Notes under the pieces: generated by a model
What the model was told of the DNA's origin: nothing
Databases searched by the model: none
The model's input: the letters and a program-made list of their open reading frames with translations, nothing else
UHGV virus genome: UHGV-0074610
Length of the DNA: 19,386 nucleotides
Origin: a virus
Direction: 5' to 3' (one strand)
Part shown: in pieces, positions 16,610-17,817 of the stretch
Layout of the letters: the number at the start of each line of letters is the position of its first letter
How positions within the stretch are numbered: position 1 is the stretch's first letter
Program-made: the position numbers and the translations under genes

Positions 16610-16936
16610 TTAAATAATTGTCGGCTTACGGAGGTCGTAAATCAGCATTGAAACAGAAAATGGAAGTTCGCCCTGTTTCAGCTTCTCTTCCTCTTCGCCG
16701 CCACGATTACGGTCAAGATAGCCAAGCAGAACCAACAGGGCTGTCTGAACGCGAGTGAGCGGCTCACCATCGATAAGATTTCCAGTGTCATCAACGATCA
16801 GCGACCTGCTACCCTGGATGTAAGAAAGGATTGCTGCACTTCCACCCTGAATTTTTAATGTCAGGTCTGAATCACCGTAATCATCATCGATACGGAGATG
16901 CATTTTCGCCTCTTCGAGCGTCACCAGTTCAATCAT
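16610..16936 (-). CDS. head-tail connector protein (phage gp6-like)
   Basis: 108-aa product begins MIELVTLEEAKMHLRIDDDYGDSD, the characteristic N-terminus of gp6-like head-tail connector proteins; ATG overlaps the upstream stop (ATGA). Confidence 0.7.
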   Translation of the reverse strand: MIELVTLEEAKMHLRIDDDYGDSDLTLKIQGGSAAILSYIQGSRSLIVDDTGNLIDGEPLTRVQTALLVLLGYLDRNRGGEEEEKLKQGELPFSVSMLIYDLRKPTII

Positions 16937-17817
16937 GGCTTATCCCTCAGGTCGCGACCTTTCTTCACAGCAAGTGTCCACCCCTTAGAGCCTGTTTCAC
17001 CTGGTTTGTCAGTAGTAGGTTCGTTGCAGTGCCACATAGACCCGCCCCAGGTGACTGTGTCACCAGGCTGATACTCGGTACCGGTTTTAAACACATCACG
17101 ATAAATAGTTACCGGGACGTCAAAGGACTTAACCTCAACTGCTCCACTTGCCCTTTCGAGTGAGATTGAGAAGGTTCGCTGGTTATCCTGTTTGATATCG
17201 ACGTTCGACACGCCATCAACGATGCATTCCCAGCCTCGCATACCGTGCGTCTTTTCATGAGATCGCCAAAGACCGCCGTTATGTGTTGCGTAAGTTCCGC
17301 GAGGGTAACTTTTCTTCTCGTCAATGAATGGTTCAAGCTCGATTGATAAAGCGTCCTTACCATCGCTGCCGGACTCAGGAACTGGAATATTCGCGGCCAC
17401 ATCTTCAGCCAGTTTTTCAACATCTACCGGCTCTGGAAGTGATGCTAATACAACCTCTTCAACCAGGGGACGAAGGTCTTCTGCACTGACGCTTTTACCA
17501 TCCTTAGGCTTGGGAAGTGATTCTATAGCCTGCTTCACCGCACTTTCTGCCGCGTCGGCGATGCTCTGGCTAAAGTCGGGTAGTTCTGGTGCTTTCGGTA
17601 ATTCAATGGCACTCACCGCTTCTGAAACCATTTTGGACACATCAGGAATTTCTACTGGCTGGAATTCAGGAATTGACAGACGAATCTCATCCATTTGTTT
17701 CTGTAGTCCAGCCTCAATTTCAACAAGCGCTTTTTTAAAGTCATCAGCCAATTTATTAATGGCTGAACCAAACTCTTCACCCAGCGCCTTTATCAGGGAT
17801 AAATCACGTTCGTTCAT
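16933..17817 (-). CDS. 294-aa acidic repeat-containing protein in the scaffold/capsid position, function unresolved
   Basis: ORF is translationally coupled on both sides (ATGA overlaps with portal and connector). N-terminal about 160 aa are acidic, helical and carry imperfect proline/glutamate repeats (IPEFQPVEIPD, LPKAPELPDF, LPEPVDVEKL); C-terminal about 130 aa look beta-rich (YPRGTYATHNGGLWRSHEKTHGMRGWECIVDG...). Does not resemble an HK97-fold capsid or a prohead protease by eye. Confidence 0.65.
   Translation of the reverse strand: MNERDLSLIKALGEEFGSAINKLADDFKKALVEIEAGLQKQMDEIRLSIPEFQPVEIPDVSKMVSEAVSAIELPKAPELPDFSQSIADAAESAVKQAIESLPKPKDGKSVSAEDLRPLVEEVVLASLPEPVDVEKLAEDVAANIPVPESGSDGKDALSIELEPFIDEKKSYPRGTYATHNGGLWRSHEKTHGMRGWECIVDGVSNVDIKQDNQRTFSISLERASGAVEVKSFDVPVTIYRDVFKTGTEYQPGDTVTWGGSMWHCNEPTTDKPGETGSKGWTLAVKKGRDLRDKP

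Follow-up and report, generated by a model that had tools for sequence, protein, structure and literature searches.

A widespread portal-linked protein in an HK97-type head module variant whose relatives carry the protease and capsid genes ahead of the portal gene

We analyzed a stretch of 19,386 nucleotides from the viral genome UHGV-0074610 (hereafter the window), in which a single gene, here named X, lies between the genes for a phage portal protein and a gp6-like head-tail adaptor. The three genes are consecutive and all on the minus strand. The portal protein (450 amino acids; positions 17814-19166) matched Pfam Phage_portal (7.7e-76) together with PHROG 2271 and PHROG 12, and the adaptor (Ad1; 108 amino acids; 16610-16936) matched Phage_connect_1 (3.5e-6), TIGR01560 (3.5e-11) and PHROG 40. 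The product of X, encoded between them (294 amino acids; 16933-17817), matched PHROG 1289 over its full length (1.7e-97), PHROG 2271 (1.9e-75) and Pfam CBM_5_12 (30 bits). Neighboring genes overlap by an ATGA on the coding strand, at 17814-17817 between portal and X and at 16933-16936 between X and the adaptor. Upstream, the portal gene is preceded by a lysine-rich open reading frame (ORF) of 56 amino acids (19169-19336, minus strand) whose stop overlaps the portal start, and the window closes with 29 bases (19358-19386) that form the terminus, specifically the right inverted repeat, of an IS4-like, IS421-family insertion sequence (IS).

An earlier note on this DNA, made from the sequence alone, had drawn attention to the lack of a protease or major capsid gene between portal and connector and had taken both gene junctions to be native. 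Both statements held up. None of the ORFs between portal and adaptor matched a protease or capsid family in Pfam or PHROGs, and the ATGA coupling recurs in enterobacterial relatives: the portal/X overlap is ATGA in those examined, and a short overlap is kept in distant ones.

The capsid and protease genes of related phages lie on the other side of the portal gene. When X was compared with sequenced phages by tblastn, 97 records were returned, mostly Stx1a-, Stx2a- and Stx2c-converting coliphages, and Salmonella phage FSL SP-016 and Pseudomonas phage PAJU2 are among the others. As annotated, the X-bearing phages have, in order, terS, terL, a gene of ~645 codons and one or two small ORFs, then the genes for portal, X, adaptor and head closure. 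We checked the succession from terL through the ~645-codon gene, portal and X to Ad1 in FSL SP-016, Stx2c phage 2851, PPompW_699, Stx2_EH1910 and PAJU2, and the same capsid-before-portal order is present in a prophage of Escherichia coli PCP07014 that is 87% identical to the window. The ~645-amino-acid product is a polyprotein in which a linker of ~230 amino acids separates an S78 prohead protease from an HK97-fold capsid protein. In FSL SP-016, Peptidase_S78 covers residues 47-153 and Phage_capsid residues 384-633; the upstream genes of the relatives scored 7.8e-15 to 3.3e-17 against Phage_capsid (PF05065), and PAJU2 gp03 is already annotated as 'prohead protease fused capsid protein'.

We then widened the comparison to one genome per bacterial species, which gave 30 loci; 24 of these include over 2 kb of DNA ahead of the portal gene. 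The capsid polyprotein sits between terL and portal in all 24, which span Enterobacteriaceae, Pseudomonas, Delftia, Variovorax, Marinobacter, Haliea and Pseudoduganella. Protease and capsid protein are encoded by two adjacent or overlapping ORFs in four distant loci from Delftia, Haliea, Variovorax and Pseudoduganella (L027, L028, L030 and L034, at ~4200-6300), so that their fusion is not universal in this type of module. In two betaproteobacterial loci (L033, 4570-7660; L035, 3100-7600), 3-4.5 kb of extra ORFs, for example of 618 and 803 amino acids, separate the portal gene from the X homologue. Close relatives of the window carry the expected gene as well. A Logan contig (L003) is 99.99% identical to the window across 12.4 kb, and on it a Phage_capsid-positive gene ends 32 nucleotides ahead of the 56-amino-acid ORF; among ten further contigs with an identical 56-amino-acid ORF, eight have a 645-amino-acid Peptidase_S78 plus Phage_capsid gene upstream of it.

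We conclude that the window carries the downstream portion of an HK97-type head module in one of its known variants and that its capsid and protease functions are very probably encoded upstream of the portal gene, beyond the window edge. The permuted order, with capsid before portal, is not new, being already present in ~100 sequenced phages. The earlier note had considered that protease and capsid genes might turn up just outside the window in the same operon, and this is where they were found in every relative examined. Of the explanations it offered, a capsid gene outside the window in an unusual position is the one favored by the synteny of the relatives; capsid proteins supplied in trans find no support, since all intact relatives encode a capsid polyprotein of their own. 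Its implied single HK97-like order of portal, protease, capsid and connector proved too narrow, given that an order of terL, protease/capsid fusion, portal, X and adaptor is already annotated in sequenced phages.

The sequence at the edge of the window bears on why no capsid gene is seen there. Read as its reverse complement, the window begins GATGGTTCAACCCTTAAGTTAGCGCTTATGG, which is identical to the end of IS421 in E. coli PCN061; the identity extends over 31 nucleotides, and a matching inverted repeat is present at the other end of that IS. The same stretch, taken as ~50 nucleotides, matches 2,741 places in 1,878 E. coli genomes. Judged by sequence, the terminal inverted repeat and the multicopy occurrence in E. 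coli identify the element as a member of the IS421 group of the IS4 family; its transposase gene and the target duplication are beyond the window. The last 29 bases of the window align with no relative, and the alignments of the reverse complement with L003 and with the E. coli prophage H52 start only at base 30. The IS lies in the GC-rich spacer that separates the 56-amino-acid ORF from the capsid stop codon and resembles a hairpin, and it is absent from all ten places listed with an identical copy of that ORF. With an IS421-family element at the window edge, we read the apparent absence of a capsid gene as a boundary effect, and the boundary itself is probably a contig break at this repeated IS. 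As a separate matter, the IS may exert a polar effect on the genes from portal to tail and could render this prophage copy defective.

X is a real gene, as its many homologues indicate: more than 1,500 were found at E<=1e-3, and 1,937 representatives of clusters at 50% identity came up in a profile search at E<=1e-30. It matched neither the Phage_portal, gp6-like connector (PF05135/TIGR01560) and PF04233 profiles nor any Pfam or PHROG capsid family or Pfam protease family, and NCBIfam holds no model for it. Neither X alone nor an 86-sequence profile brought up a solved relative in the PDB; the only matches were to designed helical-repeat proteins, explained by periodicity and composition, and weak ones to CBM modules.

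To describe the protein we used an AlphaFold2 (AF2) model built from an 86-sequence alignment with added beta- and gammaproteobacterial homologues, which is usable for the C-terminal domain (C-domain); an earlier run from 30 close homologues had reached a predicted local distance difference test (pLDDT) score of 56 and was unusable. The model places helices at residues 3-48, 60-69, 82-99, 112-126 and 133-142 and a beta-rich region at residues 176-284 (pLDDT ~90). Three parts can be distinguished, all on the minus strand. A long N-terminal helix (residues 3-48; 17674-17811; pLDDT 71-90) comes first, and the first ~16 residues of the protein (MNERELSLIKALGEEFG) are almost invariant in Enterobacteriaceae (alignment A1). 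An acidic, proline-punctuated helical repeat region follows (residues 58-150; 17368-17646), with degenerate PxPxDGK units and low pLDDT. The last part is a conserved beta domain with predicted CBM5/12-like modules (residues 160-290; 16948-17340; pLDDT 87-94). Residues 1-150 have an isoelectric point (pI) of 4.29, with 31 aspartates and glutamates vs. 15 lysines and arginines.

The repeat units of the homologues are 25-29 amino acids long and follow the pattern PxPxDGKSVTxEDVxPLxxExVxxAVxxI, alternating with PxPxDGKDxDPxxL. The number of PxPxDG motifs ranges from 0 to 11 among the listed homologues of 165-517 amino acids. Representatives of 700-862 amino acids without a portal domain were also recovered by the profile search, and these presumably carry longer repeat arrays; apart from portal fusions and one weak collagen-like tail, no extra domains were found in long X homologues. 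The X of the window has two motifs of the PxPxDG type, at residues 102 and 145, and Tandem Repeats Finder detected no DNA-level tandem repeat in its gene. A profile of the repeat region (alignment A2) matched designed helical-repeat proteins in the PDB at E ~1e-5 (8cwy, 5cwb, 7mwr), matches that reflect a helix-loop periodicity of ~29 residues and not homology. The earlier note had described an acidic, helical, repeat-containing N-terminal half and a beta-rich C-terminal domain. The pI and the AF2 model agree with the acidic helical half and the beta domain, and the term "repeat-containing" applies weakly: it fits the two motifs present here and the homologues with up to at least 11 units, but not the DNA, in which no tandem repeat was found.

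Within the C-domain, the Pfam CBM_5_12 (PF02839) match spans residues 243-273 (16999-17091, minus strand) and scores 30 bits against a cut-off of 26.2. In comparisons with known structures, the modeled C-domain fitted CBM5/12 modules only: its small three-stranded beta fold superposes on chitinase binding domains, and the A and P domains and the E-loop of an HK97 fold were not recognized in it. These structure searches, like the profile searches, agree with the earlier view that X is not a standard HK97-fold capsid protein. The standard CBM5/12 motif has an exposed pair of tryptophans (WW) after a conserved alanine; by our own reading of the sequence, X has NEPT in place of this pair. A candidate metal site formed by histidines and cysteines (H179, C198, H263 and C264) was also considered and was dropped, as H263 and C264 are not conserved in distant homologues (alignment A2).

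The C-domain is better conserved than either the portal or the capsid protein in most of the 30 loci, including every locus outside Enterobacteriaceae. Identities in distant loci are 47-62% for the C-domain, compared to 43-55% for the portal and 34-56% for the capsid protein; for Pseudomonas, the C-domain is 62% identical vs. 54% for portal and 51% for capsid, and for Delftia, 52% vs. 44% and 38%, respectively. The N-terminal and repeat regions diverge rapidly across loci. The conservation of the C-domain is unlike that of a host-specific receptor-binding tip and suggests a host-invariant ligand, which may be a phage component, DNA or peptidoglycan.

Beyond the overlap of their genes, portal and X are joined outright in many E. 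coli prophages, where one additional G puts them in a single frame. In phage 2851 (L002, at ~9000) they form one ORF of 859 amino acids, and the sole difference from the split genes of PPompW_699 and Stx2_EH1910 is a run of six Gs rather than five, located four codons before the portal stop; the tract was noted also in L036 and L037, at ~2480-2500. In IMG/VR, 41 stretches carry the six-G junction (G6) and 76 the five-G junction (G5) (L048-L164). All 76 G5 copies stop nine codons later, and 28 of the 30 assessable G6 copies read through for 289-578 codons. Four identical 400-nucleotide flank haplotypes carry both alleles, with G6 in the majority on them. Independent fusions of portal and X also occur among the profile matches, e.g., P0298 (1,237 amino acids). 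The portal/X junction of the window has no G-run. At the level of gene sequence, portal-X fusion is a recurrent and stable state. The G5/G6 toggle could represent slippage of the kind seen in phase variation, stable lineages or, in part, sequencing error.

By the logic of fused genes, the recurrent fusion would put the N-terminus of X next to the C-terminus of the portal, and a position of the N-terminal helix beside the portal C-terminus is most likely because a single extra G joins X to the portal in frame. In solved portals the C-terminus is in the crown, inside the capsid. Since portal C-termini lie there, X would probably be found at the inner side of the portal vertex. Our preferred explanation, which we hold with considerable confidence, combines the known head-gene order and the IS at the window edge with X as a portal-tethered accessory head protein. 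The start/stop overlaps would couple translation of X to that of portal and adaptor, and X would be made in portal-like amounts. Its N-terminal helix would be tethered to the C-terminal (crown) tail of the portal, the repeat region would act as a spacer of freely variable length, and the tandem CBM5/12-like domain would bind a conserved, host-invariant partner. With ~12 copies per particle, X would act in prohead nucleation or in the holding or release of the DNA end. The separate parts of this picture are not equally secure: a physical association of X with the portal is somewhat probable, and a location inside the capsid is plausible but a touch less likely than its opposite. The suggestion of the earlier note that X is a new head component stands in a weak form, in that X belongs to a large, uncharacterized family tied to the portal.

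Several observations weigh against this explanation. Some of the G6 calls may be homopolymer sequencing errors, and many of the E. coli prophages that carry G6 may be defective. CBM5/12 modules of phages are otherwise typical of external fibers, which would point to a location outside the capsid, and a strongly acidic N-terminal half would be odd amid packaged DNA. Searches of the PDB and the literature found no virion proteomics or structure for any X homologue, and the literature on FSL SP-016, phage 2851, PAJU2 and protease-capsid fusions held no functional or proteomic data on X. On the side of the capsid gene, the genome of the window cannot be read past the IS, which leaves room for an IS-associated capsid deletion in this copy, and one relative (L042) is a deletion remnant with an integrase beside a truncated capsid 3' end.

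In a different arrangement, X would be an external whisker of the neck or collar, its helix anchored at the portal/adaptor ring, its repeats forming a stalk that points outward and its CBM5/12 tip binding a surface glycan. The fold of the C-domain is indeed found at phage fiber tips (7-7-1 tail fibers, the Milano receptor-binding complex and collagen+ChiC_BD proteins in BFVD); an anchor followed by a variable stalk (0 to >11 repeats) and a binding tip is a fiber-like design, and the gene is placed between those for the portal and the adaptor. However, X is commonly joined in frame to the C-terminus of the portal, in some lineages stably, and in solved portals that end is inside the capsid. Furthermore, the supposed tip is conserved better than portal and capsid across hosts of different classes, which is the opposite of what a receptor-binding tip would show, and NEPT stands at the site of the CBM5/12 tryptophan pair. 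We regard such a whisker as unlikely.

Alternatively, X may be an assembly factor absent from mature virions. As a scaffold or nucleator bound to the portal, it would bring in the protease-capsid polyprotein and later be digested by the prohead protease. The same acidic, helical, coiled-coil-like N-terminal half that would be odd amid DNA would suit such a factor, as would translational coupling to the portal in a module that has no separate scaffold gene, and the tolerance of any spacer length fits a transient role. Nevertheless, the ~230-amino-acid linker of the polyprotein is already in the usual place of a built-in scaffold, and a folded beta domain that is conserved better than the capsid protein itself is not something one expects a transient scaffold to retain. 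A purely transient role for X is accordingly rather improbable in our estimation.

The absence of a capsid gene could also be genuine in this copy, either through an IS-mediated deletion that left a defective prophage or through dependence on the capsids of a helper. The window does break off within an IS421-family element at the very point where a capsid gene would be expected to begin, and the remnant L042 is a precedent for an integrase adjoining a truncated capsid 3' end. Still, the IS stands in the intergenic spacer past the capsid stop, as a simple insertion would give, and every intact relative encodes the capsid polyprotein. In addition, the window has a complete portal, neck, tail and tailspike set, which sets it apart from known capsid-borrowing satellites such as those resembling phage-inducible chromosomal islands (PICI-like). 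We judge such a loss to be very unlikely. In L042 itself (GCA_025797805.1, JAOVLG010000078.1; positions 1-1600), the 56-amino-acid ORF is preceded, at a distance of ~1.2 kb, by genes for an integrase and a DUF4224 protein; that only the capsid 3' end is kept there points to a large deletion of the early region, the terminase and most of the capsid gene. Finally, there is next to no chance that X is a novel small major capsid protein, a proposal that draws on nothing but the placement of its gene between those for portal and adaptor, as it has no capsid or protease match in Pfam and its C-domain matches CBM5/12 modules alone.

Returning to X as a portal-tethered accessory protein, one may go further and propose that the family carries a glycan-binding-type module at the portal, that in E. 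coli Stx-type prophages the G5/G6 tract switches X between a free and a covalently portal-joined form, that the portal vertex is thereby phase-variable and that X has a new role, e.g., in binding peptidoglycan or the DNA end during ejection. As a joint claim this is speculative, and we would not expect all of it to be correct.

The result is deflationary in that the window represents neither a capsid-less phage nor a phage with a new capsid protein. Heuristics based on HK97-like gene order should admit a fused protease/capsid gene located before the portal gene. What is still of interest is X, a widespread and mislabeled partner of the portal that, in Stx-type prophages, is fused to it or separate depending on a homopolymer tract; it is a very common portal-linked protein, found also in medically relevant Stx phages. 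Its homologues are named 'phage portal protein' or 'gp6-like head-tail connector protein' at NCBI, and PHROG 1289 and many UniRef entries are called 'portal protein'. By domain content, these public labels are inconsistent and wrong. The 'portal' label is due to portal+X fusion ORFs (PHROG 2271, 859 positions), and the true gp6-like connector is the next gene, at 16610-16936.

The 56-amino-acid ORF ahead of the portal gene is kept at the same position in most enterobacterial relatives; it has a lysine-rich C-terminus and is without a Pfam match, and its position between the capsid and portal genes is reminiscent of lambda gpW. Downstream of the adaptor are genes for a head closure protein (Hc1; 110 amino acids; 16010-16342, minus strand; Pfam Phage_HCP, 5.6e-28; PHROG 25), an HK97-gp10-like protein, a tail terminator, a tail tube protein, a chaperone, a tape measure protein, a DUF1833 protein, a TipJ-type protein and a tailspike. 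The TipJ-type protein has 905 amino acids (7343-10060), and the gene that comes directly after it encodes the tailspike or fiber protein (5077-7287, minus strand), which carries Tail_spike_N and, at its C-terminus, an intramolecular chaperone domain of the Peptidase_S74 family. Adjoining the tailspike gene, on the plus strand, is an O-antigen glucosylation-type cluster (726-5033) that consists of genes for GtrA (726-1088), the GT2 protein GtrB (1085-2005), a GtrII-type glucosyltransferase (2005-3432) and a polytopic membrane protein of 522 amino acids without a Pfam match (3465-5033). This gtr cluster is likely serotype-conversion cargo.

The closest known systems are the long-tailed Stx1- and Stx2c-converting coliphages (e.g., 2851, Pankowvirus), FSL SP-016 and PAJU2, whose head-gene order is identical to the one that we infer here. 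X is 35-47% identical to its homologues in enteric phages and 27% identical to PAJU2 ORF007. Compared to those modules, the present copy has a short X with two PxPxDG motifs, no G-run at the junction and an IS421-family insertion upstream, and it differs in its tail-tip and tailspike set and in its gtr cluster. HK97 is the more general point of reference, with its portal gp3, protease gp4, capsid protein gp5 with a delta domain and adaptor gp6. Phage_portal, Peptidase_S78, Phage_capsid, Phage_connect_1, Phage_HCP and HK97-gp10_like are families common to both modules; in contrast to HK97, protease and capsid protein are here one ORF ahead of the portal gene, and the extra gene X fills the interval between portal and adaptor.

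For proteins of the SPP1 gp7/Mu gpF type, too, the gene comes next after that for the portal; fusion to the portal occurs in some cases, and the proteins are presumed to be portal-bound and internal. The analogy is one of position only, as X has no sequence or fold similarity to them and no PF04233 match, and unlike them it carries a CBM5/12-like domain and helical repeats. By this analogy, the site proposed for X could correspond to that of SPP1 gp7 or of the P22 portal barrel. With CBM5/12 chitin-binding modules and the phage fiber proteins that contain them, X shares an above-gathering Pfam score and a close match in predicted fold. In contrast to those fiber proteins, X belongs to a head module and is linked to the portal by coupling or fusion, and its module shows high conservation instead of variation with the host.

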